Below are positions 20,124 through 35,467 of a stretch of DNA of 64,000 bases, in pieces. The translations under genes were made by a program, and so were the position numbers. Below the pieces are notes generated by a model. It saw nothing but the letters and a program-made list of their open reading frames with translations. It searched no databases and was not told the DNA's origin. Where the stretch lies: NCBI GenBank assembly GCA_947347075.1, contig CANADC010000019.1, positions 18,929 to 82,928 on the forward strand, in the 5' to 3' direction. Position 1 is the stretch's first letter, and every line of letters starts with the position of its first letter. The stretch is from an uncultured Clostridia bacterium. GTDB lineage: Bacteria > Bacillota > Clostridia > Lachnospirales > Lachnospiraceae.

Positions 20124-20190
20124 TGTATTCCAACCGGAACAGTCGCAGTATTTTGGTTGATTAAAACCGTTTTTGTGTGATTTTAGATAG

Positions 20191-20475: not shown

Positions 20476-20484
20476 AATTTCTTT

Positions 20485-20797: not shown

Positions 20798-20947
20798 TAC
20801 CTGCGTCCGGTTCTACAATACCAATATCTGGTTTATAATTGCTGAAGTGGTTTTCTTTTTTTCTGATAACTTTTCTTTAGAAATTGAATAAGCCTTGAAA
20901 ATTAGGGAAATACTCTTGGTAAAATTAGAGTATTGGAGGAGAGAGTA

Positions 20948-21169
20948 ATGCCGACTAAGAAAAAGAAAGAAATTGATTTGGAGAATTTAACACCAGAGGA
21001 TGAGATGAAATTAGAAATTGCAGAGGAAATTGGGGTGTTGGATAAAGTGCTGAAAGGGGGATGGGGAACGCTTTCTGCACGGGAAACCGGACGTATCGGC
21101 GGAATTCTTGGGACACGGAATCGAAAAAAGAAAGCACAAGAGGAAAAAGCATCTCAGGAGAATAGTTGA
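20948..21169 (+). CDS. Alpha/beta-type small acid-soluble spore protein
   Basis: 73 aa with start ATG 20948 (RBS GGAGGAG). KLEIAEEIGV...GGWGTLSARETGRIGGIL matches the alpha/beta SASP signature (EIA.E.GV...S..G..GG). Confidence 0.7.
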   Translation: MPTKKKKEIDLENLTPEDEMKLEIAEEIGVLDKVLKGGWGTLSARETGRIGGILGTRNRKKKAQEEKASQENS

Positions 21170-21293
21170 CTTTTTTGCTAGGAAAAACTATAATAAGTAT
21201 ATCATTTAGAAATGGAATAGAAAATTTTGGAAATGATAGGATTATTTACCGAGTGGAATGATCGGGAAGAAAGGCATAAAGGGATAAAGAAAA

Positions 21294-22028
21294 ATGCTGG
21301 AATTACAGAATGTTTCCTTTGAAGTGGAAGGAGAAAATCAGAAAAAAGAGATTTTACGGAATATTAGTTTAACTGTGGATAATACAAAGTTTATTGCTGT
21401 AACCGGACCGAATGGCGGAGGAAAATCAACGCTTGCTAAGTTAATTGTCGGAATTGAAAAGCCAACCATGGGAAGAATTTTATTTGATGGGGTGGATATT
21501 ACAGAGATGACCATTACAGAACGGGCAAAGGCAGGAATTAGTTTTGCTTTTCAGCAGCCGGTGCGGTTTAAGGGGGTTACAGTAAAGGATCTGATTATGC
21601 TGGCGGCGGGAAAAGAAAAGAAGCTGACGGTTGCCGGAGCTTGTAATTATTTGTCTGAGGTGGGGCTTTGTGCTAGGGATTATATTAATCGGGAAGTGGA
21701 CGGCAGTCTTTCCGGCGGGGAATTAAAGCGGATTGAGATAGCGACTGTGATGGCACGGGCATCGAAACTCTCTGTGTTTGATGAGCCGGAAGCGGGGATT
21801 GATTTATGGAGTTTTAGTAATTTGATCGATGTATTTGAAAGACTTTATCAGGAACAGAAACGTTCGATTATGATTATTTCTCATCAGGAGCGGATTTTGA
21901 ATATTGCGGATGAGATTGTGGTGATTGCAAATGGATCCATTCAGGCAATTGGAAAGAAGGATGAGATTTTGCCGGAATTGCTATCTGGTACAAGTTCCTG
22001 CAGGTATTATCAGAAAAGGGAGGTGTAG
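21294..22028 (+). CDS. SufC-like ABC ATPase
   Basis: Walker A GPNGGGKST. Signature LSGGELKRIEI and EPEAGIDL are typical of SufC. Followed 2 nt later by a SufB/D-like ORF. Confidence 0.75.
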   Translation: MLELQNVSFEVEGENQKKEILRNISLTVDNTKFIAVTGPNGGGKSTLAKLIVGIEKPTMGRILFDGVDITEMTITERAKAGISFAFQQPVRFKGVTVKDLIMLAAGKEKKLTVAGACNYLSEVGLCARDYINREVDGSLSGGELKRIEIATVMARASKLSVFDEPEAGIDLWSFSNLIDVFERLYQEQKRSIMIISHQERILNIADEIVVIANGSIQAIGKKDEILPELLSGTSSCRYYQKREV

Positions 22029-22030
22029 AG

Positions 22031-22948
22031 ATGGATGAGATTCAAAAGACCTTGCTTGAACAGGTAGCAGGACTTCATGAAGTGCCGCAGGGAGCATACA
22101 ATATTCGTGCAAATGGTGTCAGTGCGGAGAGGAATACGACCGCTAATATTGATATTGTAACAAAAGAGGATAAACAGGGGATTGATATTCGAATTAAGCC
22201 GGGAACAAAAAAGGAGAGTGTGCATATTCCGGTGCTGCTTAGTCAGAGCGGACTGACAGAGATGGTGTATAATGATTTTTACATAGGAGATGACTGCGAT
22301 ATTACAATTGTTGCAGGGTGCGGAATTCATAATGGTGGAGCAAAGGAAACTCGGCATGATGGAATTCATAGTTTTTTTGTTGGGAAAAATGCAAAAGTGC
22401 GATATGTGGAAAAGCATTATGGAAGCGGGGAAGGAACAGGAGAACGGATTATGAATCCGCAGACGGTTGTGGAATTAGGAGAAGGCAGTTATATGGAGAT
22501 GGAGACCGTTCAGATTCGGGGAGTGGATTCTACTAAGCGTTCTACTAAGGCAAAACTGGCTGACTATGCAACTTTGGTGATTAAAGAGAAGCTGATGACA
22601 CATGGAAAACAAGTGGCAGAGACTTCCTTTGAGGTGGATTTGGATGGGGAAGGTTCTGGAACGAATGTGATTTCTAGGGCAGTGGCAAAAGATGATTCTA
22701 GACAGATCTTTTTTTCAAAAATTAATGGGAATAATAAGTGTAACGGACATACGGAATGTGATGCTATTATTATGGATCGTGCCAATATTAGTGCAATTCC
22801 TGAAATTACGGCAAATCATCTGGAGGCAAGTCTGATTCATGAGGCGGCGATTGGAAAGATTGCTGGAGAACAGATCATTAAGTTAATGACGCTTGGACTA
22901 ACAGAGAGTGAGGCTGAGGCACAGATTGTAAATGGGTTTTTAAAATAA
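22031..22948 (+). CDS. SufB/SufD-family FeS-assembly protein (short form)
   Basis: 305 aa. Beta-helix-like repeat character with a C-terminal SufBD-like region. Operon partner of the SufC-like ATPase. Confidence 0.65.
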
Positions 22949-22989
22949 GGATAAAGAAAATAAGAGAAGAGAGGGCGAGGAATAATTCT

Positions 22990-23298
22990 ATGGAGACGAA
23001 AGAAACAGGAGTTCAATTTGAGGAGTTAAAGGCTTGTATTGATCGGGCAGACGATTGTATTAGGGAGATTTTAGATAAGACAAAAAATTTGGATAAAATT
23101 GAAAGTCAGCAAAAAATTTTAGCATTGAATGCTTCAATAGAAGCAGCACGAGCCGGAGATGCCGGAAAAGGATTTGCGATTGTTGCTACAAAAGTCGGGG
23201 AATTGGCAAGCAGTTCAGCAGCGGTAAATAGTTCTATTAAGCAGTCGTTAGAAGATTTGGATCGAATTATTTTAGAGATGAAAAAATTGGAAAAATAG
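22990..23298 (+). CDS. Small protein consisting only of a methyl-accepting chemotaxis protein signalling-tip motif
   Basis: 102 aa. [31 protein letters not shown] matches the highly conserved MCP hairpin-tip region (LALNAAIEAARAGE.GRGFAVVA.EVR.LA). No TM, HAMP or sensor domain. Confidence 0.5.
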
Positions 23299-23305
23299 AA
23301 AAAGG

Positions 23306-23385
23306 GACTGCTGCAAAATATAGTAATTTTACAGAATATAGGGACAATCATAATACTATTTATTGTTTTGCAGCAGTCTTTTTTT
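23306..23385 (+). terminator. Intrinsic terminator (long-loop hairpin plus U-run)
   Basis: GACTGCTGCAAAA ... TTTTGCAGCAGTC 13-bp stem followed by TTTTTTT. Confidence 0.5.
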
Positions 23386-23477
23386 GCGTACATAAGTGTT
23401 GGGAGGAAAAGGACAGTTAAAGCAGGAAAGAGGTTTTTTGTTTTATTGGACTTTTTTTAAAAAATAAAAAAAAATAC

Positions 23478-23506
23478 TTGACGAATGATTATTTTATCAG
23501 TATAAT
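23478..23506 (+). promoter_or_regulatory. Sigma-A-type promoter for ssrA
   Basis: TTGACG, 17 nt, TATAAT. tmRNA precursor 5' leader about 45 nt. Confidence 0.5.
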
Positions 23507-23553
23507 AACTATTGTTCTGTAAGAACCATTCAACTGAAAGAATTGAAAAATTC

Positions 23554-23916
23554 GGGGTTGTACTGGTTTCGACGGGGATTATGAAGTTGGAGAAGCCACC
23601 TGCGGGTCGGAACCGCATTAGTAAACCGAAAATTAAATATAAACGCAAACGAAGATTACGCGTTCGCTGCTTAATAGCAGCTGTCGCTCTTAGGTAGCTT
23701 ACTGCTTAAGAATCCGGCATCAAGGAGGTAAGGAACTTTGTATCCAAAGCTTTGAGGGTATAAAAGAAAAATGAAGCTACTAAAGCCGGAAACCTGTCCA
23801 TGGGTGTCCGATAGAGGGAACCGTATAGAAAAAGGCTATGCATAAAACAGGGACTGTGGTGGGAGATGCTTTGATGGAGGAGTCTTCGGACAGGGGTTCG
23901 ATTCCCCTCAGCTCCA
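23554..23916 (+). ncRNA. ssrA: tmRNA (SsrA)
   Basis: 5' GGGGTTGTACTGGTTTCGACGGGG matches the tmRNA consensus GGGG..G..CUGG.UUCGACGGG. Internal tag reading frame ends ...ANEDYAFAA followed by TAA. 3' end GGACAGGGGTTCGATTCCCCTCAGCTCCA forms a T-arm plus a 7-bp acceptor stem with the G3:U pair. CCA is not encoded. Confidence 0.85.
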
Positions 23917-23942
23917 TCGGTTAAACGTAACCGTGTTATGTT

Positions 23943-24016
23943 CGAGGTGTGGCTCAGTTTGGTAGAGCGCTACGTTCGGGACGTAGAAGTCGCGTGTTCG
24001 AATCACGTCACCTCGA
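23943..24016 (+). tRNA. tRNA-Pro (anticodon CGG)
   Basis: Cloverleaf folded by hand. Acceptor CGAGGTG/CACCTCG. D-arm GCTC-AGTTTGGTA-GAGC. Anticodon arm CTACG-TTCGGGA-CGTAG with G37. T-arm GCGTG-TTCGAAT-CACGT. 74 nt, no encoded CCA. Confidence 0.85.
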
Positions 24017-24180
24017 CTGAATTTAAGCAGATGCGGATCGCGTCTGCTAATTTTTTTTTTCGAAAGTGCTTGCCAAAATGGTTGTTTGTGTTATATAGTA
24101 TATTCGAAAAGCTATTTGTGCCGAAAGGAACGAAAAAGAGAAAAAAAGGAATTGGTATGCAATTAGAGGAGGAGTATAGA

Positions 24181-24432
24181 ATGGAAAGCAAGACAGTTTT
24201 GGTTGGTGCACCTGCGGAAGAAGAATTAAATCCGGTAGCAAAGCTAGTGCAGATTGCTTGTCAATATGAAAGCTCTATTTATTTGGAGAATGGAACACGT
24301 AAGGTAAATGCCAAGAGTATCATGGGTATGATGGCACTGACACTTCATAAAGGGATGAGTGTTACAATATATGCAGATGGTGCAGATGAAGATGCGGCAA
24401 TGGAGAGTATGGCAGCATATTTAGGTTGTTAA
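24181..24432 (+). CDS. HPr-fold phosphocarrier-like protein lacking the catalytic His15 (Crh-like)
   Basis: 83 aa from ATG 24181 (RBS GAGGAGG, 8-nt spacer). Aligns along its length with HPr (KVNAKSIMGMMALTLHKGMSVTIYADGADEDAA). The GIHARPA region reads EEELNPVA, so the active-site His is replaced by Glu. The Ser46 context KSIMG is retained. Confidence 0.7.
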   Translation: MESKTVLVGAPAEEELNPVAKLVQIACQYESSIYLENGTRKVNAKSIMGMMALTLHKGMSVTIYADGADEDAAMESMAAYLGC

Positions 24433-24451
24433 TTGTGAAGGAGGGATATAT

Positions 24452-24913
24452 ATGCCAAGAAGGAAAAAAGGAACAGAAAATGAAATCGCAGAAAAGACTC
24501 AATCAGCAGTGATGCCGGAAGCAGTGGAAAGTAAGCCGGCAGAAGCAAAATTGGAAGAGGCTTCTTTGGATGAGTTGTTTATGGAAAATGACGGAGAGAC
24601 ATCCGTTCTAAAGCAGAGAAAACCAAGGGCAAAGAGAGGAACAGCAAAGAAAGAAACAGAAGCAGCAGGGAAAAGAGGGGCTGCAAAGAAGGAAGCTGTT
24701 AAGAAAGAGAACGGTCAGGAAAAACAGATTTATATTCAATATGCAAATAAAGAAGTCAATATAGTAGATATTGAAGATAGAGTAAAGAAGGCTTGGGAAT
24801 CAGAAGGACATCGTGCCGGATCGATTAAAAAGTTAGATATTTATATTAAGCCAGAAGAAGCCGCTGTATATTATGTGATCAACGGCAAAAATGCAGGACG
24901 TGTTGATTTTTAA
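24452..24913 (+). CDS. Hypothetical protein with Lys-rich N-terminus
   Basis: 153 aa. Good RBS (GGAGGG). Basic low-complexity N-terminus and a compact C-terminal domain. No motif recognised. Confidence 0.5.
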   Translation: MPRRKKGTENEIAEKTQSAVMPEAVESKPAEAKLEEASLDELFMENDGETSVLKQRKPRAKRGTAKKETEAAGKRGAAKKEAVKKENGQEKQIYIQYANKEVNIVDIEDRVKKAWESEGHRAGSIKKLDIYIKPEEAAVYYVINGKNAGRVDF

Positions 24914-24960
24914 TGATTTTGCGGCAGAGTAAGTCCCGGAGAGATCCGGGGCTTTTGTGT

Positions 24961-25128
24961 TTTTTAACCTATTAAGGAAGTCCCCTGCTTCTAAGCCGTG
25001 AAGGCGAAAGCGGTGGGTTGGGAGACTTCCTTGTGTCAGCTGGGGGAAAGTCCCATCTGACAAGCAGCGATAGCAGCATAGGATTATGAGGAAGGAGCAG
25101 ATTCCGAATTTCCTTATTTCCTTTGACT
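24961..25128 (+). repeat. Repeat family B, variant B2
   Basis: TTTTAACCTATTAAGGAAGTCCCC...GGGAGACTTCCTTG foldback with inner hairpins. 3' end GGAGCAGATTCCGAATTTCCTTATTTCCTTTGACT. Confidence 0.7.
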
Positions 25129-25135
25129 AAAAGAA

Positions 25136-25750
25136 ATGGAGAAAAGCAGTATGGCTAAAGGAGAAACCATTTACGGGATTACTTACAGAGATCCGGTGGA
25201 AGCGAAAAAGGCAAAAAAAGAGTGGGAAGGGATACAGTATATTTTGTCGCAAAATGATATGGAAAATATGGAGGTTGCACTTGCTGTATATAATAAATTG
25301 GCAGAACGCAATGTATTGAAAACAGAAGTTGGGACAAAATTTTTAAGGGAATGGAAAGAGCGGTTGTTAGAGGCAAAAGAGATCGAGAATCAGAGAATAT
25401 ATGGATTTCAGTTAGAGGATGAACAGTGGCTGCGGGTAAGAGAGAGGGACAGAGCGGAAAAAGAAGAACGGATTGCTCAGAAAAATAAAAAAAATACAAG
25501 TCTTTATTATCGGCAGAAATATTATCATGCCCTTATTTTAAATATTTTGTTGATTGCTGCTATATTGATTATGGCTTATATTACACTAAATAGTAATCAT
25601 GTCAATATATTAAATTATGAGAATACACTGATTAATAAATATATATCATGGGAAAAAGATTTACAGCAGAAAGAGGAAGAATTAAAAGAAAGGGAAAAAG
25701 AATTAAAGGCAAAAGAAAAGGAACTTTTCGGGAAAGATTCACAAAATTAA
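25136..25750 (+). CDS. Hypothetical membrane protein with coiled-coil segments
   Basis: 204 aa. One TM helix (ALILNILLIAAILIMAYITL). Glu/Lys-rich C-terminal repeats KEEELKEREKELKAKEKEL. Confidence 0.5.
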   Translation: MEKSSMAKGETIYGITYRDPVEAKKAKKEWEGIQYILSQNDMENMEVALAVYNKLAERNVLKTEVGTKFLREWKERLLEAKEIENQRIYGFQLEDEQWLRVRERDRAEKEERIAQKNKKNTSLYYRQKYYHALILNILLIAAILIMAYITLNSNHVNILNYENTLINKYISWEKDLQQKEEELKEREKELKAKEKELFGKDSQN

Positions 25751-25819
25751 CATAACTTTATGATAATTTTTAAATAGAAAAAGATCCAGAGATTAGAACG
25801 AAAAGAAAGAAGGAATAAA

Positions 25820-26500
25820 ATGGAAAAGTTAAAAATTCTGGTGATTGACGATGAAAGCCGAATGAGAAAATTGGTACGGGATTTTTTGGTGAAAAAGAAT
25901 TTTGAGGTTTTAGAAGCAGAGAACGGAGAAGAAGCGATTGATATTTTTTTTCAGGAAAAAGAGATTGCACTTTTAATATTGGATATTATGATGCCGAAGA
26001 TGGACGGATGGCAAGTCTGCAGAGAGATTAGACAACATTCAAAGGTACCGATTATTATGCTGACAGCAAAGGGGGATGAGCGGGACGAACTGCTGGGATT
26101 TGAATTGGGCGTGGATGAATATATCTCAAAACCGTTTAGCCCTAAAATTTTAGTGGCAAGAGTAGAAGCTATTTTACGCCGTACCAATGTGCTTGGTATG
26201 GATGAAGCGATTGAGATAGGAGGAATTCGTCTGGATAAGGCTGCACATAAAGTTACAATTGATGGAGAGGATGTAGAACTTAGTTTTAAAGAGTTTGAGT
26301 TATTGACGTATTTTATTGAGAATCAGGGGCTGGCGTTGTCTCGGGAAAAGATTTTAAATCATGTTTGGAATTATGATTATTTTGGGGATGCTAGAACCAT
26401 TGATACACATGTAAAAAAATTAAGGAGTAAAATGGGGGAAAAAGGGGAATATATTAAAACCATATGGGGAATGGGATATAAATTTGAACCGGGAAAATAA
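25820..26500 (+). CDS. OmpR-family response regulator
   Basis: Receiver domain (phospho-acceptor LILDIMMPKMDG, KVPIIMLTAKG) plus winged-helix output (DTHVKKLRSKM...TIWGMGYKF). Confidence 0.85.
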   Translation: MEKLKILVIDDESRMRKLVRDFLVKKNFEVLEAENGEEAIDIFFQEKEIALLILDIMMPKMDGWQVCREIRQHSKVPIIMLTAKGDERDELLGFELGVDEYISKPFSPKILVARVEAILRRTNVLGMDEAIEIGGIRLDKAAHKVTIDGEDVELSFKEFELLTYFIENQGLALSREKILNHVWNYDYFGDARTIDTHVKKLRSKMGEKGEYIKTIWGMGYKFEPGK

Positions 26501-26541
26501 GGAATCAGAGGGATAAAAGCAGAAAGGTATTAGAGAAAGAG

Positions 26542-28056
26542 ATGAGTAAAATAGCAGGTTTAGTAGGGAAAATACAATATTCTATTCGAACCAAAATAAT
26601 AGCATTAATGTTATTTGCGACTTTTGGTACAGTTTTTTTGCTTTTATTGATTAATAATCGATTTTTAGAAGATTATTATTTAATTAGTAAACAGACAAAA
26701 TTGGAAAATGCTTATGTGAGTATGTGTGAATTGGTACAGAGTAATAAAAAGGTGGATGAGGTAGCATTGGAGTTAGAGGGGTTGTGCCAAAAATCCAATA
26801 TTACATTTATTATTTTGGATGCCAATACAGGAATGTTAAAACCAGTCTATTATAATGTGCACAATGTACAGACCCTGCAGGATTTGGTAATGCCTTATTT
26901 ATTTGGAATTGAGAATAGTGCGGTGACTTTAAAAAGGGAAGAGGATTATAGTATTTTTCGAAATAAAGATAGTCGCTATTCGACTAATTTTTTGGAATTA
27001 TTCGGGGTGGAGCCTAATACCAGAGAATATATGCTGCTTCGTATTCCGGTGGAAAGTATAAAAGAAAGCGTAGAGATTTCTAATCGTTTTGTTGCCTATG
27101 TGGGAGGAATTGTCAGTATTTTAGCTATTATGATTTCGATTACGATTACTAGGCGTTTGACCAGACCTTTGTTGGAATTGGCAGAATTATCGGGGAAAAT
27201 GTCTAATTTAGATTTTGAGGCAAAGTATGAGCGGCACGATAAAGATGAAATCGGTGTGTTAGGGCAGAGTATGAATGAACTTTCCAAAAAGTTAGAGCAT
27301 ACGATTTCTGAATTAAAGTCGGCGAATAATGAACTGCAAAAGGATATTGAGCAGAAGATTCAGATGGAGGAGATAAGGAAGGAATTTTTATCGAATGTAT
27401 CTCATGAATTAAAAACGCCGATTGCATTGATTCAGGGATATGCGGAGGGGCTTGCAGAAGGGATTAATGAGGATGCAGAAAGCAGGGAGTTTTACTGTGA
27501 AGTAATTATAGATGAAGCAGATAAAATGAATAAAATGGTAAAGAAACTGCTGACTTTAAATCAATTAGAATTTGGACAGGAACAGATTACGATGGAGCGG
27601 TTTGATTTGACGGCATTGATTTTGGGTGTGATTCAGTCGGTTGAAATTTTATGCAGGCAGGACAAGATTACGGTTTTATTCGAGCAGCGGGAGCCGGTTT
27701 TTGTATGGGGGGATGAGTATCAGTTAGAGGAAGTGGTTACGAATTATATTAGTAATGCGATTCACTATGCAGGCGGAGAGAAGCAGATCGTTGTTTCTTT
27801 GACAAAAAATGAGCATACGGTAAGGGTGTCTGTTTTTAATACAGGGAATCCGATTCCAGAGGAGGAGTTGGGGAAGGTTTGGATTAAGTTTTATAAGGTG
27901 GATAAGGCACGGACAAGAGAGTATGGAGGGAGCGGGATTGGGCTGTCGATTGTAAAGGCAATTATGGAAGCTCATCATAAAGAATATGGGGTTCGAAATT
28001 TGGAAAATGGGGTGGAATTTTGGTTTGAGGTGGATAGTGATACGGGGGTTTTGTAG
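26542..28056 (+). CDS. Sensor histidine kinase (TM-HAMP-HisKA-HATPase)
   Basis: Two TM segments. H-box SHELKTP. N/G boxes (NAIHYAGG, GGSGIGLSIVK). It lies immediately downstream of the response regulator. Confidence 0.85.
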   Translation: MSKIAGLVGKIQYSIRTKIIALMLFATFGTVFLLLLINNRFLEDYYLISKQTKLENAYVSMCELVQSNKKVDEVALELEGLCQKSNITFIILDANTGMLKPVYYNVHNVQTLQDLVMPYLFGIENSAVTLKREEDYSIFRNKDSRYSTNFLELFGVEPNTREYMLLRIPVESIKESVEISNRFVAYVGGIVSILAIMISITITRRLTRPLLELAELSGKMSNLDFEAKYERHDKDEIGVLGQSMNELSKKLEHTISELKSANNELQKDIEQKIQMEEIRKEFLSNVSHELKTPIALIQGYAEGLAEGINEDAESREFYCEVIIDEADKMNKMVKKLLTLNQLEFGQEQITMERFDLTALILGVIQSVEILCRQDKITVLFEQREPVFVWGDEYQLEEVVTNYISNAIHYAGGEKQIVVSLTKNEHTVRVSVFNTGNPIPEEELGKVWIKFYKVDKARTREYGGSGIGLSIVKAIMEAHHKEYGVRNLENGVEFWFEVDSDTGVL

Positions 28057-28063
28057 GGAAATG

Positions 28064-28324
28064 GGGGGAGGGGACGCTAGAGTTTGGAAGCAATTCTTTT
28101 TTGCTGTTCCGCTCTCCGAAAAGTAAGAACGGCTAATGCCTCTGAGTTTAGGTGCATCTGACCGGACGGATCGGCACGCAATTCGCCTCTGCAGGAGGCT
28201 AAACACGTGCCTTTTTTTGCCATTTGGAAATGGCAAAAAATCCTAGTGGATCGACAGAGGCATAAGACGTTCTAACTTTTCTCCGAAGTCACAGCAAAAA
28301 AGAATCGCTTCCCAACTCTGGCTG
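28064..28324 (+). repeat. Structured repeat family A, copy A3
   Basis: Begins 8 nt after the histidine-kinase stop codon. Outer stem AGAGTTTGGAAGCAATTCTTTTTTGCTG / CAGCAAAAAAGAATCGCTTCCCAACTCT and inner stem AGAACGGCTAATGCCTCTG / CAGAGGCATAAGACGTTCT. Confidence 0.8.
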
Positions 28325-28534
28325 TTTTTTCCTGTATTTTTATTGATAAAAAGAATAAAAGGCGAGATGGAGCTGCTTGGGAATGGGTATTGTTAGGTTG
28401 AAAAAGGAAATTTGCATTGTGAAAATGTAAAATCAGGTTGTGAAAATGCAGATTTCGTGATATATTAGGAGAAGAGAGGAAAGCAGGACGGGAATTTTTT
28501 GTAAATTTTATGAATAGAGTGAGAGGTAAGAAGG

Positions 28535-29257
28535 ATGAAAAAGAGACTATGTACTGTGTTATGTGCAGCAACGATACTTTTAACAGGCTGCGGAGCAGTG
28601 GAATTGACAGATAGTGAAAGTGATCTAATAGCAGAGTATGCAGCAACTGTATTATTAAAATATTCAAATACCTATCAGCCTAAATTGCAGGACGAAGTAA
28701 TAGAGACTATTCCGAATATTTATATTACACCAACTGCTCCGGCAGATATATCACAAAACGGACAGGGCGGGCAGATATCGCCGAATCTTCCTGTTTCTAC
28801 GGAGGCACCGGCAAAGAATCTTTCGGAAGCGGTAGGGATTGCAGCGGAAGGATTTGAGGTAGAATATGCCGGGTATGAAGTGACGAATACATATCCGAAT
28901 ACAGGAGATGCTTATTTTGCAATGAGGGCAACGCAGAATAAACGGCTGCTGGTTATGAAGTTTGATATTACCAATCGGACGGGAGAGGAAAAAGAGTGCG
29001 ATATTTTATCCAAAGAGAGAACTTACCGGTGTCGGGTAAATGATACGGAACGATTTGGGGCACAGCTTACTATGTTACTGGATGATTTGGCTTCTTTTAA
29101 GGAAGTATTTGCAGCAAATGAAACGAAACAGGCAGTTTTAATTTTCCAAATACCGGCAGAATATGAAGGCACGATTACTACTTTAGATTTAACCGTGCGT
29201 GGAGAAGGCGAGAGTAATAGTTATAGTTATCATTCGGATTCCGCTGCCTCAGAATAA
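28535..29257 (+). CDS. Putative lipoprotein
   Basis: Signal peptide with lipobox LLTGC (MKKRLCTVLCAATILLTGCG). 240 aa. Confidence 0.6.
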   Translation: MKKRLCTVLCAATILLTGCGAVELTDSESDLIAEYAATVLLKYSNTYQPKLQDEVIETIPNIYITPTAPADISQNGQGGQISPNLPVSTEAPAKNLSEAVGIAAEGFEVEYAGYEVTNTYPNTGDAYFAMRATQNKRLLVMKFDITNRTGEEKECDILSKERTYRCRVNDTERFGAQLTMLLDDLASFKEVFAANETKQAVLIFQIPAEYEGTITTLDLTVRGEGESNSYSYHSDSAASE

Positions 29258-29711
29258 AGAAATAAAAATAAAGATAAGTAGATTTGTTTGGGGTCTGGTA
29301 ACGGTTTAACAACATTTATAATATTATGTACGAAATAATTACATCTAAAGGTATGTGAAAAACCTTGTTGATTTTCAGATATAGAGACTGAATATCAGCA
29401 AGGTTTTCTTTTTTCTCCATTTTATGAAATTCTTCTGTAAGTATATTACTGACTGCCTGTGAAGGGATTTTCGCCCAATGCCTTTTGCAAGGTTGTGTTT
29501 TGGTGCTTTCGTTTTGGTTTTATACTGTGCCATACGAATATTAAAGGTTTTTCCTATAGTCTAAGCTGAAATAATGCAACTTAATGGAAAAAGTATTGTA
29601 ACTTCAATATATATTTGTTATGATAAAAATAAAAAGGTGGTATTAGATTATGTCCTTCTCATATAAACCGCTATGGAAATTACTAATTGATTATGATATG
29701 TCGAAAAAGGA

Positions 29712-29831
29712 TTTAACCTCATTAAGGGAGTCCCCCGCTTCTAAGCCGTCAAGGCGAAAGCGGTGGGTTGGGACTTCCTTGATGAGGTTATGAGCAAGTA
29801 GCGAAGCGGATTGCGAATATCCGATTTGACT
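29712..29831 (+). repeat. Repeat family B, short form (no inner hairpins)
   Basis: TTTAACCTCATTAAGGGAGTCCCCCGCTTCTAAGCCGTCAAGGCGAAAGCGGTGGGTTGGGACTTCCTTGATGAGGTTATGAGCAAGTAGCGAAGCGGATTGCGAATATCCGATTTGACT. Confidence 0.8.
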
Positions 29832-29882
29832 TGTAAAGTTGACGATGTTATCCAACATTGCCAAGATAGGAGGAATATTTGA

Positions 29883-30881
29883 GTGGATAAAATAGATTTT
29901 GAAAATATTCATTTATATTGTGGGGATGCGATTAGATTATATAGTAAATGGAAAACTCCAGTTGTTATAATCTGTGATGGACCATATGGCGTAAATGGAT
30001 TTCCAGGAGATTTAGTTTCATATAAAGGACTTGCAGAGTGGTATGAGCCACATATAAAAAAATGGAGTTCTTTTGCTACACCGCTTACAACGTTATGGTT
30101 TTGGTGTACTGAGGTTGGTTGGGCAACGGTTCACCCTATGTTAGAAAAATATGGCTGGGATTATGTTTCTTGCTGCGTATGGGATAAAGGAATGGGACAT
30201 GCAGCGGGAAATACAAATACTAAAACGATTAGACATTTGCCTGTAGTTACAGAAGTGTGTGTTCAATATGTAAAAAAGCCTATCTTTATGGTAGGAGAGG
30301 TTCAAATGACAATGAAAGAATGGCTGCGCTATGAATGGGAACGTACAGGGCTTCCATTTTCAAAAACAAATGAAGCTTGTGGAGTGAAAGATGCCGCAAC
30401 AAGAAAATATTTTACAAAATGTCATTTATGGTATATGCCGCCTGCAGAAGCTTTTGAAAAGATTGCAGTATATGCAAATACATTTGGAGCAGATAATGGA
30501 AAACCATACTTTTCTTTAAATGGTAAAACCGTTATAACAAAAAAAGAGTGGGCACAGATGCGTTCAAAATTTTATTGTCCTATTGGTGTAACAAATGTAT
30601 GGCAGGTTCCACAGTTGAGAGGGCACGAACGCTTGAAAATTAACCAAAAGGCAATACATCTAAATCAGAAACCATTGGAATTGATTAAACGTACCATAGA
30701 AATGGTTTCTGATGTTGGTGATGTGGTTTGGGATCCATTTGCTGGATTATGTACAACAGCGGTTGCTTCAACTGAGTTGGAACGAATTTGTTTTTGTGCA
30801 GAAATCAATCATGATGTATATAATATAGCAGTAGAACGAGTAAAAAACAGTTTACAGGATGGTTTTCAATGCGTTCTCTAA
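29883..30881 (+). CDS. DNA methyltransferase, N4/N6-MTase family, beta class
   Basis: GTG start with RBS AGGAGG. Motif IV-like ICDGPYGV (a DPPY variant) lies near the N-terminus and motif I VWDPFAGLCTTAVAS (DPFxGSGTT) near the C-terminus. That order is typical of beta-class amino-MTases. AT-rich relative to flanking genes. Confidence 0.7.
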   Translation: MDKIDFENIHLYCGDAIRLYSKWKTPVVIICDGPYGVNGFPGDLVSYKGLAEWYEPHIKKWSSFATPLTTLWFWCTEVGWATVHPMLEKYGWDYVSCCVWDKGMGHAAGNTNTKTIRHLPVVTEVCVQYVKKPIFMVGEVQMTMKEWLRYEWERTGLPFSKTNEACGVKDAATRKYFTKCHLWYMPPAEAFEKIAVYANTFGADNGKPYFSLNGKTVITKKEWAQMRSKFYCPIGVTNVWQVPQLRGHERLKINQKAIHLNQKPLELIKRTIEMVSDVGDVVWDPFAGLCTTAVASTELERICFCAEINHDVYNIAVERVKNSLQDGFQCVL

Positions 30882-31733
30882 CTTTTTTTCATCTTTTGAG
30901 GATAAAATTTCACTCCATTGTTTGATTGTCATACTATGAAAAACAGTATTTAAAACATGGGTTTTAAATTGTTCAATTTCCTCATGTTCTATACGGTCGA
31001 TTTTGGCATAATTAGTATCAAGTCTATAAATAAATTGTCCGTATAGAGTTCTTAGAAGTCGTTGATATTCTGGGGCAGGGCTGTATCTTTGGGCATCTTT
31101 TCCCCATGTTTCAACAATGGAAAATGCAGCTTTAGCATCGCATTTATCTGATTGTAATTTATAACCATTCGTGTTGGTTTGCTGCAAATTAGTGGTACGT
31201 TCAGAGGTGTCTTCTGGTTCAAAAACAAGATAGTCAGGTGGTTTATGGTAGTGGGAATCTCTTGCTTCTGCAACACTCTTACCGCTAACTATAAGGACAT
31301 CAATAATTTGAGGCTTTCCCCAAATAACATTCTCTGGTAGCCATGCAATTAGTGCCATATCTATATTATCTTGTGCAAAAATCGTTACACTGTCCTTGAA
31401 GCGTGCTGTAATTTCTGTTGCAAAAGGAAACCATGCTTTAATTTCGATACCAGGGTTAGGTTGGATTATGCTACTCTTGAAAAGTGCATCAGGGAAACCA
31501 GGATCTTGCCTTATCCATTCACCTACGCCATTCCAGTCGTGTTTATTTAATAAGTCAATTGTAGAAAATTCAATCATATTTCCCAACAATGGAGAAAGTT
31601 TTGAGATAACTTTTGCGAGTTGTTTTGCGTATGCTAATGTTGCTGGACGTTTGATATCTAGTACATCAATCAAATGACTGTCTAAAGAAGATAATTCTTT
31701 TTTGGCGGCATCTAGAATATCTCTACTATTCAT
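30852..31733 (-). CDS. Hypothetical protein; candidate type II restriction endonuclease partner of the MTase
   Basis: 293 aa with RBS AAGGAG 8 nt before ATG. Convergent with the MTase and overlapping it by 30 nt at the 3' end. No motif confidently recognised (possible D...E.K near IDMALIAWLPENVIWGK). Confidence 0.4.
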   Translation of the reverse strand: MNSRDILDAAKKELSSLDSHLIDVLDIKRPATLAYAKQLAKVISKLSPLLGNMIEFSTIDLLNKHDWNGVGEWIRQDPGFPDALFKSSIIQPNPGIEIKAWFPFATEITARFKDSVTIFAQDNIDMALIAWLPENVIWGKPQIIDVLIVSGKSVAEARDSHYHKPPDYLVFEPEDTSERTTNLQQTNTNGYKLQSDKCDAKAAFSIVETWGKDAQRYSPAPEYQRLLRTLYGQFIYRLDTNYAKIDRIEHEEIEQFKTHVLNTVFHSMTIKQWSEILSSKDEKKLENALKTIL

Positions 31734-31962
31734 TAAGGTTACTCCTTTTTACAATTAATTCATTTTAGTATATCATGAAAACAGAGTTGAGAAAAGTAGT
31801 GACTTTTGAAAATATTGTAATATAAAATAATAATATATATTTAATCGTAAGAATGGATTGATAAATAGAAAATAATATGTTGCAAAGAACTTTTATTTTT
31901 TTAAAAATAGGAAATGGGAAATGACAAATGATATATTAGTAATTTTCAATATTTTAACCTCA

Positions 31963-32066
31963 TCAAGGAAGTCCCCCGCTTCTAAGCCGCCAAGGCGAAA
32001 GCGGTGGACTTCCTTGATGAGGTTATGAGCAAGTAGCAAAGCGGATTGCGAATATCCGATTTGACT
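31963..32066 (+). repeat. Repeat family B, short form
   Basis: TTTAACCTCATCAAGGAAGTCCCCCGCTTCTAAGCCGCCAAGGCGAAAGCGGTGGACTTCCTTGATGAGGTT...GCGGATTGCGAATATCCGATTTGACT. Direct orientation with the copy at 29712. Confidence 0.8.
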
Positions 32067-32224
32067 TGTTCTATATTTTGAGAAGACAAAATACAAATCT
32101 CTTGTTTTTTCTTAATGAAGTATTTAGAGTGGAAAAAATCTCCTTATTAAATTTTGTATATTTCGGATAGATTAAGAAGATACTATCTTGAAGAAAAATA
32201 AAAAATAAGGAGAAGGTGGGAGGA

Positions 32225-33643
32225 ATGGATAAGACAGATCAACTGAATTTTCAAAATACCTTAAAACGGTTCCAGCAGCTTTTGCGGACAGAGGATAGTT
32301 TTGATATTTTATATAAAGAACTTTTGATTGGTGAGCGAAATGCAGTTTATTTTTTTGTAAATGGTTTTGTAAAAGATGACGATATGCAGAAGTTAATGGC
32401 ATCTTTTGTTAGTATTAAAAAAGAGGATATGCCGTCCGATGCAGCAGGATTTTCTAAAAAATATTTGTCTTATTTAGAAGTGGAGTTAGAGACAAAAGAG
32501 GATACGATTATAAAAAATGTACTTTCTGGTGTGGTTGCAATGTTTGTAGAGGGGTATCAGGAAGCTTATCTGATTGACTGCAGAAGTTATCCATCAAGGG
32601 GAGTAGAGGAACCGGAAAAAGACAGGGTAATGCGTGGTTCTAGGGATGGATTTGTAGAAACGATGGTATCCAATACGGCATTAATTCGCCGCCGAATTCG
32701 AAGTACGGAATTGACAAATGAGATCTATACAGTGGGGCGTTCTTCTAAGACGGATATAGCTGTTTGCTATATGAGAGATCGTGTCGATCCCGAATTTTTA
32801 AAGGAGTTGATTCAGAGGATTAAAAAAATTGATATTGATGCATTGACTATGAATCAGGAGAGTTTGGCGGAATGTCTCTATAGAAGGGGATGGTGGAATC
32901 CGTTTCCGAAGTATAAATATACCGAGCGTCCAGATACGGCAGCGGCATCGATATTGGAAGGAGGGATTGCGGTTTTAGTAGATAATTCTCCTTCTGCTAT
33001 GATTCTGCCTTGTTCGGTATTTGATATTTTAGAGGAAGCAGATGATTATTATTTTCCTCCTGTTACAGGGACTTATCTTAGAGTGTCACGATTTATTATT
33101 ACGATCTTGACAATGATTTTGACACCTACTTGGCTGTTGCTTATGAAAAATCCAGAGTGGGTTCCAGAATGGCTTGCGTTTATCTTTCCGGCTGAAGAGA
33201 TACAGGTTCCTTTGATTTGGCAGTTGATTATTTTGGAATTTGCGATTGATGGGTTGCGGCTTGCGGCTGTGAATACACCTAATATGCTTAGTACGCCTTT
33301 AAGTGTAATTGCGGGTTTAGTATTAGGGGATTATGCGGTACAGTCGGGGTGGTTTAATTCGGAGTCTATGCTTTATATGGCTTTTGTGGTGTTGGCAAAT
33401 TATTCGCAGCCTAGTTTTGAACTGGGGTTTGCACTTAAGTTTATGCGGTTGATTACCTTGCTGCTTACACAAATATTGGATGTTTGGGGATATGGATTTG
33501 GAATTTTGTTTGCGGTATTTTGTATTTGTCAGAATCGCACGCTTTCGGGAAAGAGTTATTTGTATCCGTTGTTTCCTTTTAATGGACGGGAGTTTTTAAG
33601 GCGGTTTGTGCGGATTAGTCTGCCTCAGACGGAGAATAAATAG
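32225..33643 (+). CDS. GerA-family spore germination protein (GerAA/SpoVAF-like)
   Basis: 472 aa. N-terminal soluble domain typical of the GerA family (DILYKELLIGERNAVYFFVNGFVKDDDMQKLM) followed by several TM helices. Confidence 0.7.
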   Translation: MDKTDQLNFQNTLKRFQQLLRTEDSFDILYKELLIGERNAVYFFVNGFVKDDDMQKLMASFVSIKKEDMPSDAAGFSKKYLSYLEVELETKEDTIIKNVLSGVVAMFVEGYQEAYLIDCRSYPSRGVEEPEKDRVMRGSRDGFVETMVSNTALIRRRIRSTELTNEIYTVGRSSKTDIAVCYMRDRVDPEFLKELIQRIKKIDIDALTMNQESLAECLYRRGWWNPFPKYKYTERPDTAAASILEGGIAVLVDNSPSAMILPCSVFDILEEADDYYFPPVTGTYLRVSRFIITILTMILTPTWLLLMKNPEWVPEWLAFIFPAEEIQVPLIWQLIILEFAIDGLRLAAVNTPNMLSTPLSVIAGLVLGDYAVQSGWFNSESMLYMAFVVLANYSQPSFELGFALKFMRLITLLLTQILDVWGYGFGILFAVFCICQNRTLSGKSYLYPLFPFNGREFLRRFVRISLPQTENK

Positions 33644-33747
33644 AATAGGTATAATATATTTTATACTAAGTTTTTCATTTATTGTAGAGTTTCGATTGTT
33701 TGGAGTGGTTTGGGATTGTTTGATTTAGAATTGTTTTGGGTAGTCCT

Positions 33748-33892
33748 GACGCTCGCCCTAAGGGATCTTTCTTTGCTGGGGCCGTTTGCACTAAGGCTTC
33801 CTCGCAGCGGACACATAAGGCACGAAAAGACCGTGCCTAAGTGCCGGCGGGAAGCAATACCCCTGCAAAGAAAGATCCCTTAGGGCGAGCTG
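33748..33892 (+). repeat. Structured repeat family C, copy C3
   Basis: Family C core flanked by perfectly complementary 26-bp arms GCTCGCCCTAAGGGATCTTTCTTTGC / GCAAAGAAAGATCCCTTAGGGCGAGC. Confidence 0.8.
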
Positions 33893-33905
33893 TTTTGTAT
33901 CTTAT

Positions 33906-34013
33906 TTTAACCTCATCAAGGAAGTGCAGACTTTAGACTTTCATTGAAAAGTTGCGATAGTGGCTATGAGGTTATGAGCGAGTAGTGAAGCGGATTGCGA
34001 ATTTCCTTTGATT
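33906..34013 (+). repeat. Repeat family B, divergent short variant
   Basis: TTTTAACCTCATCAAGGAAGTGCAGACTTTAGACTTTCATTGAAAAGTTGCGATAGTGGCTATGAGGTTATGAGCGAGTAGTGAAGCGGATTGCGAATTTCCTTTGATT. Confidence 0.65.
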
Positions 34014-34215
34014 TTTATGCTTTAGTGAAAAATTTCCTATGTTTTACATGGAATATTATATTTATAATAAAATATAGTTGAAAAATTTTAAGGCTGCTTT
34101 TATAATAGAGATGGTAAATAGATCGGAGAGGAAAAATATGGATTTCTCTCCGCATTTTTATATAAAATAGGCGATATATTTTTAATTTAAAGATTTAGGA
34201 GGTTAAATTAAATCC

Positions 34216-34482
34216 GTGTTTTTATTTTTTAAAGATCTGAAAAATAAAGCAAAGAAAAATGCTCAGTTAGAGACAATTTTACAAAAGATACAAATGAATA
34301 TGTCTAATAATTATAAAGACGCAGCACAAGAAAATTTAAAGGAATTTCAAAAGGTTTTTCAGGAATATCTTGATGCAAATAAACTGGATGAAAAACAGAA
34401 AGAATATTATCAAGAAAAATTGTCCAATTTATTAGTACAGATGAAACATTATACACATAAAGATCAGAAAACAACTTGGTAA
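34216..34482 (+). CDS. Hypothetical small helical protein inside a repeat-bounded unit
   Basis: 88 aa with GTG start. AGGAGG lies 13 nt upstream. Lys/Gln-rich and predicted helical. Possibly non-coding. Confidence 0.3.
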   Translation: MFLFFKDLKNKAKKNAQLETILQKIQMNMSNNYKDAAQENLKEFQKVFQEYLDANKLDEKQKEYYQEKLSNLLVQMKHYTHKDQKTTW

Positions 34483-34524
34483 AGCGATTCTATCAAACAT
34501 TCCGTTGAGATAGACAGATTGTAG

Positions 34525-34648
34525 CTGCTGGTGAATCCCTGCAGGGGTATTGCTTCCCGCCGGCACTTAGGCACGGTACTTTCGTGCCTTATGTGTCCGC
34601 TGCGAGGAAGCCTTAGTGCAAACGGCCCCAGCAGGGATTCACCAGCAG
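34525..34648 (-). repeat. Structured repeat family C, copy C4 (inverted relative to C3)
   Basis: Reverse-complement family C core flanked by the arms CTGCTGGTGAATCCCTGC / GCAGGGATTCACCAGCAG. Confidence 0.8.
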
Positions 34649-34842
34649 ATGCAATCGTCCAGATCGCCATAAACAATCATTCGGCTCACTATAAATAACT
34701 TTCTGGCTCACTATAAACAATCAGATTACTATTCGATCGATTCGAATTAAGGTCTTGTCAGATAATAGAAAATCTGCTACAATCGTATATATGTTCGATT
34801 AATCGAAGCAGGTTTGTAATACTATGGGTAAGGAGAACCACA

Positions 34843-35451
34843 ATGATTTATTATATTAAAGGGGAATTAAAAGAAGCTGGTACCGATTTTGCAGTTGTAG
34901 AGAATCATGGAATCGGGTATTTGATACGGGTTCCTGCTGCTGTTATTACTAAGCTTCCGGCAGTGGGCAGCGAAATTCAGATTTTTACATATCTCTATGT
35001 AAGGGAAGATATTTTGGATTTATATGGATTTTTAAATAGAGATGACATGAATATTTTTCGGCTTCTTTTAGGGGTAAGCGGGATAGGTCCAAAGGGAGCT
35101 TTAGCCATTCTTTCTACCATTTCTGCAGATGAACTGCGGTTTGCCGTATTGGCGGGAGATGCGAAAACGATTGCAAAAGCACCTGGAATCGGAAACAAGA
35201 CAGCACAGAAGATGGTAATTGAATTAAAGGATAAATTAAAGTTAGAAGAAGCATTTGAGCAGAAGATAGCAAATGAGGAGAAGTCGTCCTTGGGACAGAC
35301 TGCAGAGATTCAGAATGAGGCGGTGCAGGCATTGACGGCTTTAGGATATAGTCCGACAGATGCTCTTCGTGCGGTTCGTGCGGTAACAGTGACAGAAGAA
35401 ATGACAGTAGAAGCGTTGCTAAAGGCTTCTTTAAAAACGATCAGTCGGTAG
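34843..35451 (+). CDS. ruvA: Holliday junction branch-migration complex subunit RuvA
   Basis: 202 aa. Helix-hairpin-helix motif region [14 protein letters not shown]...[14 protein letters not shown]. Immediately upstream of ruvB. Confidence 0.9.
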
Positions 35452-35467
35452 GACGGAAGGGTTATAT

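Follow-up and report, generated by a model that had tools for sequence, protein, structure and literature searches.

What kind of sequence recurs eight times within 64 kb of a Lachnospiraceae genome, folds end to end and keeps its stems paired while their letters differ from copy to copy? The question is raised by a 64,000-nt stretch of DNA (contig CANADC010000019.1, assembly GCA_947347075.1) from an uncultured Clostridia bacterium, hereafter the window, and by the repeat of 250–270 nt found in it, hereafter family A, whose copy at 28063 serves as the reference. A first-pass annotation, made from the letters of the window, had taken the changing but complementary stems as a sign of selection on a folded RNA or single-stranded DNA and had offered three possible origins: a 3′ untranslated region (UTR) RNA element, a miniature inverted-repeat transposable element (MITE), and an end or omega-RNA derivative of an IS200/IS605 element. 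In our analysis, family A looks like a seemingly undescribed non-autonomous mobile element and not like a known RNA gene.

Copies, fold and stem pairing of family A

The window holds seven full copies of family A and one copy cut by its end. A profile hidden Markov model (HMM; nhmmer) built from an alignment of 71 distinct copies (alignment A2) matched the window at exactly eight places, and the eight copies listed in the first-pass annotation were confirmed with coordinates shifted by a few bases. BLASTN searches with the copies as queries found no further copy in the window, only self-antisense matches, and the core motifs occur there 7–10 times compared with 0.02–0.07 times expected in shuffled sequence. 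None of the copies overlaps a confirmed gene of the window; the open reading frames (ORFs) that run over copies, e.g. 27724-28236(-), 44213-44647(-) and 58981-59433(-), are spurious. The context analysis of the typed copies (see below) showed that the flanking long ORFs end or start outside the copy in nearly all cases. The consensus read from the alignment contains no ATG-started frame longer than 11 codons. An encoded peptide was rejected, as the frames from ATG have at most 11 codons and the frame is broken by indels in the A-run.

An exact-pattern scan of a genome collection with one genome per species yielded at least 120 loci, and all 80 of these that were listed came from two uncultured Lachnospiraceae metagenome-assembled genomes (MAGs). 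MGBC128194, the mouse-gut one of these two, shares 99% identity with the window in their overlap and is therefore assigned to the same species. The window and the 120 loci together contain at least 192 non-overlapping matches, at least 113 of them full-length and nearly all from MGBC128194; this MAG carries more than 100 full copies beyond those of the window. Many MAG contigs stop in the middle of a copy, and so do contigs from several assemblies. The region is also covered by a 97-kb ENA contig (ERZ12802909 NODE_209), and the GenBank proteins MCX4268579.1 and MCX4268582.1 are traceable to one MAG. In the scan of metagenome contigs, real copies were found only in one ENA assembly set (ERZ7796xx); five other loci with an exact match were rejected as chance matches within GC-rich genes, and viral contigs, plasmids and phages gave no match. 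Among the matches listed, family A is restricted to a few related gut Lachnospiraceae.

The first-pass annotation had matched the element to no RNA motif by eye, and the Rfam searches agreed with this. At gathering thresholds, the whole window contained only a transfer-messenger RNA (tmRNA), a thiamine pyrophosphate (TPP) riboswitch and two tRNAs, none of them at a family A copy, and the reference copy searched at E ≤ 10 produced only chance matches of 10–14 bits. The Rfam families covered included the hammerhead, twister, HEARO, IS605-orfB omega-RNA motifs, 6S and tmRNA. Literature searches turned up no account of a comparable element from Lachnospiraceae or Clostridia.

Every copy forms one long hairpin, which in the reference copy has a folding energy of −130 kcal/mol as RNA (z = −9.9; −126 kcal/mol for the reverse complement) and −70 kcal/mol as DNA (z = −9.3). 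Its foot, 5′ GGACG ... CTGT 3′, consists of three base pairs and a bulged T and closes a stem of about 60 bp, which has a middle part free to vary, a conserved internal loop (TTCCGCTCTCCG / CCTCCGAAGTCAC) and a conserved A·A mismatch in the inner stem (TCTAATGC/GCATAAGA). The conserved junction includes invariant and near-invariant columns. The top of the hairpin is formed by an asymmetric conserved core of about 110 nt, in which a hairpin with a 6 × 6 internal loop is followed by a T7-hairpin-A6 unit (Table 1). This unit, with its U-run before and A-run after the hairpin, had rightly been distinguished from a classical terminator. A second species retains the internal loop but has about 60 nt more at the apex of the first hairpin. 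Contrary to the earlier claim, the core is not near-identical in every copy, since the reference copy (28064 in the first-pass numbering) has alternative, fully compensated versions of both core helices (GGCACG/CGTGCC and GCCTCT/GGAGGC).

For alignment A2, RNAalifold predicted 76 base pairs in eight helices. A standard pair is formed in 97.9% of the cells, compared with 83.9% when the partners are shuffled and 44–51% when they are slid by 1–3 columns, and none of 500 shuffles attained the observed value. Cells with changes on both sides of the pair number 720 (161 with shuffled and 44–105 with slid partners), and compensatory change on both sides was detected in 51 of the 76 pairs. The outer stem has approximately 20 variable pairs and a distinct arm sequence in 69 of the 71 copies; a copy's own arms are Watson-Crick paired to 95.9%, whereas arms swapped between copies pair to only 53.7%. 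The earlier statement that the stems differ and yet stay complementary was thus found to hold far beyond what shared column ancestry gives, and the inner-stem examples quoted with it are present, as is the conserved A·A mismatch. Searched against about 0.8 Mb of sequence, each variable arm matched nothing but the arm with which it pairs, and the idea that the arms are guides or copies of targets was rejected on these grounds. An additional pseudoknot or three-way-junction helix was rejected as well (the best candidate is only 75% paired), and so were local hairpins within each arm, which contain many wobbles and, at 82–87% pairing at most, fall far short of the long-range stems.

The covariation demonstrates the importance of pairing, not that RNA is the paired molecule. 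In the long stems, 3593 cells are Watson-Crick pairs, 51 are G·U and 71 are A·C. This equal rarity of G·U and A·C would be expected where both DNA strands, or a hairpin of DNA, are important, and it fits DNA better, because selection acting on RNA should tolerate wobble (G·U) but not A·C. The first-pass interpretation of the compensatory changes as selection on a folded RNA or single-stranded DNA was therefore kept as regards the importance of pairing but not as regards RNA in particular. When copies are compared, the outer stem is 61.5% identical and the unpaired variable loop, which served as a proxy for neutral divergence, 61.8%, in comparison with 87% for the junction and 84% for the core. 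The stems thus change at an approximately neutral rate and yet remain paired, a combination that templated correction from arm to arm would produce more easily than two-step compensatory selection. Template switching in quasi-palindromes is an established mechanism of such arm-to-arm correction. One candidate for compensation in situ, C·A in the MAG and C-G in the window copy at 59260, is a single anecdote.

Subtypes, insertion sites and the related family B

By the length of the outer stem, 98 copies were typed as L (n = 56) or S (n = 42). The 14-nt leader of the L copies has a mean G fraction of 0.61 and their consensus tail is GCTGT(C/T)TTTTCCTGCCGRTAGA, while the S copies have the leader consensus TYCCNAARGRGG (mean G fraction 0.39) and the tail GCTGTATTGTCYCACAATYTACG. 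The G-rich leader, which had been ascribed to every copy in the window, is present in seven of the eight; the S copy at 12400(-) has CCCCGGAAATAACGCC. The L copies end in the GC-closed foot followed by T5–7, and neither S copies nor those of the related family B (see below) have a contiguous T-run. A terminator scan of positions 19000–36000 gave nothing at the 3′ end of the reference copy, but it accepts only loops of 3–8 nt and so could not call the stem of the element, which is closed over about 250 nt.

The two subtypes differ in their gene context. The 5′ neighbour of an L copy is the end of a co-oriented gene in 36 cases and a gene start in 16 (p = 0.008), with a median distance of 57 nt from the stop codon, whereas S copies face a gene start in 27 cases and a gene end in 9 (p = 0.004). 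S copies are mostly antisense and upstream of promoters, and both S copies in the window lie upstream of good promoters of the next plus-strand gene. A position just 3′ of stop codons, originally assigned to the family as a whole, is therefore a feature of the L subtype only, and there it is a bias. Similarly, five of the six plus-strand copies in the window had been placed 8–60 nt behind a stop codon, but we found four of the six at 7–51 nt (behind the histidine kinase, FtsA-like, pncB and thiC genes), the copy behind the M32 carboxypeptidase gene being 173 nt away. All six L copies in the window are on the plus strand and both S copies on the minus strand. The plus strand shows a very strong GC skew (+0.13 to +0.35 in 8-kb bins, at 37–44% G+C), and nearly all window genes were also seen to lie on it. 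Orientation may follow transcription or replication.

Copies of family A often occur in doublets. A partner within 1.5 kb was found for 53 of the 98 typed copies, always tail to tail, and about 45 tail-to-tail neighbour pairs were counted when fragments were included; no head-to-head or tandem neighbours were seen among the listed neighbour pairs. All 20 typed near pairs have opposite orientation. The spacers measure 60–1100 nt, are not shared between doublets and in most cases contain no ORF. The cores of doublet partners are slightly more similar than those of random pairs (identity 0.874 vs 0.843, p = 0.013) and the other regions do not differ. Doublets as single units or as local inverted duplications were rejected because of the unique spacers and because the partners barely exceed random similarity.

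The same layout was found in family B, a repeat of about 140 nt whose conserved core measures 78 nt and whose hypervariable arms, about 20 nt long, are unique to each copy. Four copies forming two convergent pairs are present in the window (Table 1), and the loci retrieved, which nearly all belong to the two MAGs, contain 12 further occurrences (e.g. L063:7313-7484 and L023:1413-1582, the latter with a 5′-end duplicate at L023:1351). Rfam gave no match in the family B region. Families A and B have in common the GGACG...CTGT foot with the bulged T, the unique arms, tandem duplicates of the 5′ end and the tail-to-tail doublets. Since foot and layout are common to both and the core of B is different, the two families are built on one chassis with exchangeable cores. 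No empty chassis, i.e. a hairpin with the foot shorter than 130 nt, was found in the sample, which contains only classes of 140, 230–260 and 320–330 nt; insertion of the cores into a simpler existing hairpin was rejected for this reason.

Comparison of orthologous sites revealed filled and empty positions. The site 3′ of pncB carries an L copy in the window and in the same-species MAG and is empty in four relatives with PncB proteins 96, 95, 93 and 91% identical. In three of these the promoter region of the thi operon follows 20–70 nt past the pncB stop codon, just before the TPP riboswitch, and in the fourth (PncB 95% identical) a different gene follows pncB. The site occupied by the copy at 54623, upstream of a gene for a protein resembling the major vault protein (MVP), carries a family B end in the relative with PncB 96% identical. 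In the 91% relative (locus L129), pncB begins 27 nt after the FtsA-like gene, and both the MVP-like gene and the copy preceding it are consequently absent there. The thiC 3′ site is filled both in the window and in the 91% relative, by copies with different stems. The flanks of the copies are recognizable only by composition (G-rich 5′, T-rich 3′), with no direct repeats.

In six or seven strains of the window's species, the two sites compared are always filled, with 0–2 substitutions per copy and no insertion polymorphism, so that neither strain-level polymorphism nor compensation in situ was supported. Family A is thus gained and lost on a species time scale, without a recent burst, as the identity of a copy to its nearest neighbour within the genome (orthologues excluded) is 88% at the median and never above 95%. 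An S-type copy whose halves lie 1.6 kb apart (L133:391-2217) was considered as an autonomous version and rejected: it is split by an insertion sequence (IS) with a 411-aa ORF, with GGCTAAACAC on both sides, which is followed by a second, IS5-like insertion.

Some copies are accompanied by tandem arrays whose units derive from the element itself. The 23-nt units of the array at 6341-6429 are partial duplications of the leader and 5′ end, the last unit overlapping the copy at 6407, and the units of the array at 44337-44480 are degenerate copies of the same parts. The number of units differs between strains of the same species (3–5 for the 35-nt unit, 2–3 for a 66-nt unit), and the intergenic region containing the array behind the M32 gene measures 548, 586 and 620 nt in three strains. 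This variability suggests replication slippage at a structure formed by DNA. Arrays adjoining family A copies were observed at 44337-44480, 59539-59641 and 6341-6429 in the window and also in loci L143, L144 and L049.

A proposed mobile DNA hairpin and its rivals

With moderate confidence, we regard family A as a new, lineage-specific family of non-autonomous, hairpin-based mobile DNA, the working form of which would be a long, imperfect hairpin. It would be one member of a superfamily united by the foot and differing in exchangeable cores, its stems would be kept paired at the DNA level, and a structure-specific enzyme would mobilise it in trans. This enzyme, encoded elsewhere in the genome, would recognize the conserved foot and bulge as well as the mismatch, the loop and the core, and may bind folded single-stranded or cruciform DNA like HUH/Y1 transposases, RAYTs (the TnpA-REP Y1 transposases) and integron integrases. 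Copies would be inserted into AT-rich intergenic DNA, the L copies usually behind a gene and the S copies usually before the next promoter, tail to tail. The complementarity of the arms would be kept, for instance, by template switching between them, i.e. quasi-palindrome correction, or by selection for transposability, and such maintenance at the DNA level would explain both the lack of wobble tolerance and the fact that the stems change as fast as unconstrained sequence. Copies that are read through would add a very stable 3′ hairpin and a T-run to the transcript and may terminate or insulate transcription as a by-product. The copy split by two IS insertions and the antisense S copies upstream of promoters point to dispensability and were counted for this explanation. 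Of the origins proposed in the first-pass annotation, the MITE-like one fits best, in view of the filled and empty pncB site and the restricted range; nothing was found that connects the element with IS200/IS605 ends or omega-RNA.

Several findings weigh against a mobile DNA hairpin. Between old copies, the core (84%) and the junction (87%) are far better conserved than the neutral proxy (62%), which suggests selection at each locus or concerted evolution. The helix between leader and tail is possible on the plus strand only, through G·U/G·T pairs, and the core hairpins likewise have G·U pairs on the plus strand only (80 vs 2 A·C), which points away from DNA. Orientation relative to the neighbouring genes is not random (Fisher p = 7e-5 for the contrast between L and S). 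In the incomplete sample of copies, there are no near-identical ones and hence no sign of recent bursts. The pncB junction is not clean, 35 nt in an empty relative corresponding to about 425 nt in the window, and neither a target-site duplication nor a target motif is readable from the filled and empty sites. Finally, no mobilising gene was found in the approximately 0.9 Mb sampled, where no Y1 transposase exceeds the size of a stub.

The search for such a gene covered several possibilities. In the sampled loci, no multi-copy transposase ORF, no IS with family A ends, no tnpB and no transposase linked to the family were found, and the window contains no integrase. The only candidate is a stub of an IS200-type Y1 transposase of 48 aa at 12148-12290(+) (MEVTHGRG*VYSIQYHIVWCVKYKHKMITADIEKCL...; Pfam Y1_Tnp, E = 2e-6), which runs into a 30-nt hairpin repeat (family C) distinct from family A. 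All of its 21 database relatives are stubs of 27–77 aa, which suggests a conserved truncated module and not random decay; an HMM built from them found nothing else in the 0.9 Mb. A link between this transposase and family A was rejected since its relatives are stubs only and its terminal hairpin is different. Two other leads were dropped. The occurrence of GGGGACGCTAGAAT at 8988(-) was judged a coincidence within a serine-recombinase-like gene fragment (translation read by eye), and the resemblance of the leader to Tn3-family inverted repeats (GGGG...GACGCT) was discounted, the rest of the 38-bp repeat not being conserved between copies.

The arrangement of the L copies could also result from selection by the host on a cis-acting RNA, such as a 3′ UTR terminator, an insulator, a 3′-end stabiliser or a platform for an RNA-binding protein, in which the Shine-Dalgarno-like GGAGG leader and the CCUCC-like junction loop would modulate the access of ribosomes or RNases and mobility would account for the spread only. 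Such an RNA is rather unlikely in our opinion, although it agrees with the co-oriented position of L copies behind genes, the T-run after their stem, the pairing of leader and tail on the sense strand only, the strand-specific wobbles of the core hairpins and the ancestral pncB 3′ site, which has no terminator before the thi promoter. Moreover, conserved core and internal loops together with a hairpin apex extended by 60 nt in another species are the pattern of a structured RNA. The long stems, however, do not tolerate wobble, most of the S copies (about 40% of the family) have an antisense orientation and a place upstream of promoters, the pncB site is empty in the four relatives with PncB 91–96% identical, no Rfam family matches and the taxonomic range is narrow. 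In addition, a long-range stem of 130 bp would probably make a poor co-transcriptional terminator. The conservation of core and junction in copies otherwise near saturation in divergence would also be met by a domesticated DNA site comparable with bacterial interspersed mosaic elements (BIMEs), compatible with a mobile origin, in which the hairpin would present the core as a putative binding site for a host protein (gyrase, an IHF-like nucleoid protein or a recombination factor) or the copies would mark boundaries of replication or transcription. The fixed tail-to-tail layout of L and S, their strict strand assignment in a window with strong GC skew and the DNA-type compensation are consistent with such a site; nevertheless we hold it to be improbable, as no binding protein is known, the sites differ between close relatives, one copy has been disrupted by IS elements, and partners only marginally above random similarity indicate that the doublets are not kept as units.

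A third rival is a guide-RNA-bearing or IS200/IS605-derived element, with a core like an omega-RNA or bridge RNA, or a palindrome-associated transposable element (PATE) made of IS200/IS605 ends, in which the variable parts would be programmable guides. This origin was suggested by the Y1 stub 110 nt from the S copy at 12400, by the IS200/IS605-type hairpin repeats hosted by the lineage and by the structured, conserved core, but we consider it highly improbable: the arms are base-paired instead of exposed and match only their own partners, the stub ends in the family C hairpin and has only stubs as relatives, the two ends of family A pair in one joint hairpin, whereas a left-end and a right-end hairpin, each by itself on one strand, would be expected, neither TnpA nor TnpB adjoins any sampled copy, the apparent long version is an IS insertion, and no omega-RNA family of Rfam matches. 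A broader idea, which we put forward as a speculation with a low chance of being right, is a whole class of structure-guided DNA, mobile or domesticated, consisting of a universal chassis with exchangeable cores, an enzyme specific for single-strand hairpins, copying from arm to arm and use of the cores by the host. The chassis would comprise the GGACG/CTGT foot with the bulged T, the variable stems and the fixed mismatches, and would carry cores A, B and possibly more; the arms would be regenerated by templated copying and not by selection, and the cores would act in L/S doublets as polar boundaries of transcription or replication.

The preferred explanation, a mobile DNA hairpin, gains from comparison with known systems. 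[quoted passage not shown] Like REP, REPIN and BIME sequences of Proteobacteria, which are mobilised by RAYTs encoded by a single-copy gene flanked by such repeats, family A consists of high-copy, strictly extragenic hairpins with a short conserved foot motif, mispairs and bulges in the stem and arms kept complementary; it also occurs in inverted doublets of two subtypes and resides for a long time without a multi-copy mobilising gene. It differs in the size of the unit (250–270 nt vs 21–65 nt), in the asymmetric core of about 110 nt, in the foot (GGACG vs GTAG/GTGG) and in the Firmicute host, where no RAYT was found in the approximately 0.9 Mb sampled. It also differs in that its doublets have unique spacers of 60–1100 nt and in that there is no master sequence with many identical copies.

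Foldback MITEs such as Correia/NEMIS in Neisseria, RUP and BOX in Streptococcus pneumoniae, bcr1 in the Bacillus cereus group and ERIC are non-coding intergenic elements of 100–300 bp that fold end to end, vary in presence between relatives and are often co-transcribed with their neighbours, affecting termination or stability. In classical MITEs, which are non-autonomous derivatives of DDE-type IS elements, each copy is flanked by a target-site duplication, the terminal inverted repeats, matching those of a parental IS, are conserved and the interior drifts. Family A is likewise short, non-coding, multi-copy and intergenic, and its presence differs at an orthologous site, but conservation is limited to the 5-nt foot and the core, and variation is greatest in the subterminal stem. 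Its ends are inverted repeats in which only GGACG/CTGT and about 8 nt are conserved, and neither a parental IS nor a target-site duplication was found in the sampled sequence. With IS200/IS605 ends, PATEs and integron attC sites, family A has in common a recognition that would be led by structure, conserved extrahelical bases and mismatches and stems that may vary if paired. The attC sites also lie just 3′ of ORFs, as the L copies tend to do, but they are 57–141 nt long, have RYYYAAC/GTTRRRY boxes and form cassette arrays beside intI, whereas family A shows no such boxes, ends in GGACGC...GCTGT and has housekeeping genes in conserved order as neighbours. In an IS200/IS605 element, each end has a subterminal hairpin to itself and both hairpins are on one strand, in contrast to the mutually pairing ends of family A. 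Intrinsic terminators have a GC-rich stem with a short loop and, directly after it, a U-tract on the sense strand of the upstream gene. Similarly, a GC-closed stem followed by a T-run stands behind genes in the L copies, but the arms are about 250 nt apart and the U-run of the central hairpin is 5′ of it. Family A thus appears to work most like REPINs/BIMEs and foldback MITEs, from which it departs in size, foot, terminal repeats and parent gene.

Feature coordinates, neighbouring sequences and meaning

The coordinates of the family A and B copies, of the parts of the reference copy and of the adjoining tandem arrays are given in Table 1.

Table 1. Positions of repeats and of reference-copy parts in the window
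Feature	Position	Strand	Remarks
Family A copy, L subtype	6407-6676	+	nhmmer
Family A copy, S subtype	12400-12643	-	Short outer stem, no G-rich leader, tail TATTGTCTCACAATCTAC; upstream of addB-like promoter
Family A copy, L subtype, reference copy	28063-28334	+	nhmmer, sequence, fold; 7 nt past histidine kinase stop codon (28056)
Family A copy, L subtype	44475-44743	+	173 nt past M32 carboxypeptidase stop codon, behind tandem array
Family A copy, S subtype by stem length	48727-48984	-	Short outer stem; between tRNA gene and zf-HC2 gene promoter
Family A copy, L subtype	54623-54887	+	51 nt past FtsA-like stop codon
Family A copy, L subtype	59260-59531	+	23 nt past pncB stop codon
Family A copy, L subtype, cut by window end	63856-64000	+	40 nt past thiC stop codon
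Reference copy: G-rich leader GGGGGGAGGGG	28063-28073	+	Pairs with T-rich tail only via G·U/G·T wobbles
Reference copy: 5′ foot GGACGC	28072-28077	+	Motif common to family B
Reference copy: outer stem 5′ arm	28076-28107	+	Ends conserved, ~22-nt middle hypervariable; pairs with 28291-28322 (helices 1-2)
Reference copy: junction region 5′ side TCCGCTCTCCGAAAAGT, conserved	28108-28124	+	Partly unpaired; ends in AAAGT strand of helix 3
Reference copy: inner stem 5′ arm AAGAACGGCTAATGCCTCTG	28125-28144	+	Conserved A·A mismatch; pairs with 28255-28273 (helices 3-4)
Reference copy: variable unpaired loop	28145-28161	+	62% identity between copies; proxy for neutral divergence
Reference copy: asymmetric conserved core	28162-28254	+	Helices 6-8; comprises CCGGACGGA, two hairpins, TCCTAGTGGATCGA
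Core: two-step hairpin, conserved 6 × 6 internal loop CAATTC/TAAACA	28173-28211	+	
Core: T7-hairpin-A6	28212-28240	+	
Reference copy: inner stem 3′ arm and junction 3′ side AACTTTTCTCCGAAGTCA	28255-28290	+	Contains CCTCC-like CTCCG
Reference copy: outer stem 3′ arm	28291-28322	+	Inverted repeat with 5′ arm, 91% complementary
Reference copy: 3′ foot GCTGT and T-rich tail TTTTTCCTGT	28321-28335	+	Sequence
Family B copy	19975-20130	+	Foot GGACG...CTGT; extra 5′-end duplicate at 19941
Family B copy, convergent partner of 19975	20665-20804	-	Inverted-repeat search
Family B copy	33751-33890	+	Inverted-repeat search
Family B copy, convergent partner of 33751	34517-34656	-	Inverted-repeat search
Upstream part of tandem array 6341-6429	6341-6406	+	23-nt unit × 3.9, GGGGAGGACGCTAGAGTGGGGAA
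Upstream part of tandem array 44337-44480	44337-44474	+	35-nt unit × 4.1

The third repeat family, family C, consists of a hairpin containing AACCTCATCAAGGAAGT (16 matches vs 2 expected) paired with a 30-nt hairpin GTCAAAGCGGATTGCGAATATCCGATTTGAC (7 vs 0.01 expected). It was observed at 6960/7092, 20200-20369/20332, 29773/29807, 31955-32025/32042, 33915/33991, 57531-57583/57663, 60112 and 48671(-), often beginning less than 100 nt from an A or B copy's 3′ end, and looks like a PATE derived from IS200/IS605. The spacer of one family B doublet contains an 88-aa Lys/Glu-rich ORF (34216-34482(+)) with a near-consensus promoter (TTGAAA-17-TATAAT at 34078-34106).

The tmRNA, the two tRNAs and the TPP riboswitch before the thi operon occupy 23554-23919, 23943-24016, 48331-48413 and 59702-59812. 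The gap between the riboswitch and thiM has about 370 nt of extra sequence here, including a family C hairpin at approximately 60100-60160, while in the relatives L126 and L142 the riboswitch is much closer to the gene. The MVP-like protein mentioned above (812 aa, 54968-57406(+)) has major-vault-protein shoulder, Vault_3 and SPFH/Band 7 domains. The segment 8184-9014(-), G+C-richer by eye, translates like a part of a large serine recombinase and has no proper start, and an ORF for an IstB-like ATPase (9875-10465(-)) lies near it; both are likely to be remnants of other mobile elements.

Recognition of family A is of practical use for annotation, since it prevents false ORF calls over the copies. 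The element also breaks short-read assemblies. Extrapolated from its density in the window, family A may occupy a few percent of the genome in this uncultured Lachnospiraceae, which is common in the mouse gut. Should the L copies indeed act as terminators or insulators, they would shape how hundreds of genes are expressed. The family is also a natural experiment in which the arms of long DNA hairpins stay complementary while drifting at a neutral rate. It points to a putative Firmicute enzyme recognizing folded DNA, which would be relevant to research on mobile DNA and to tools for genome engineering.

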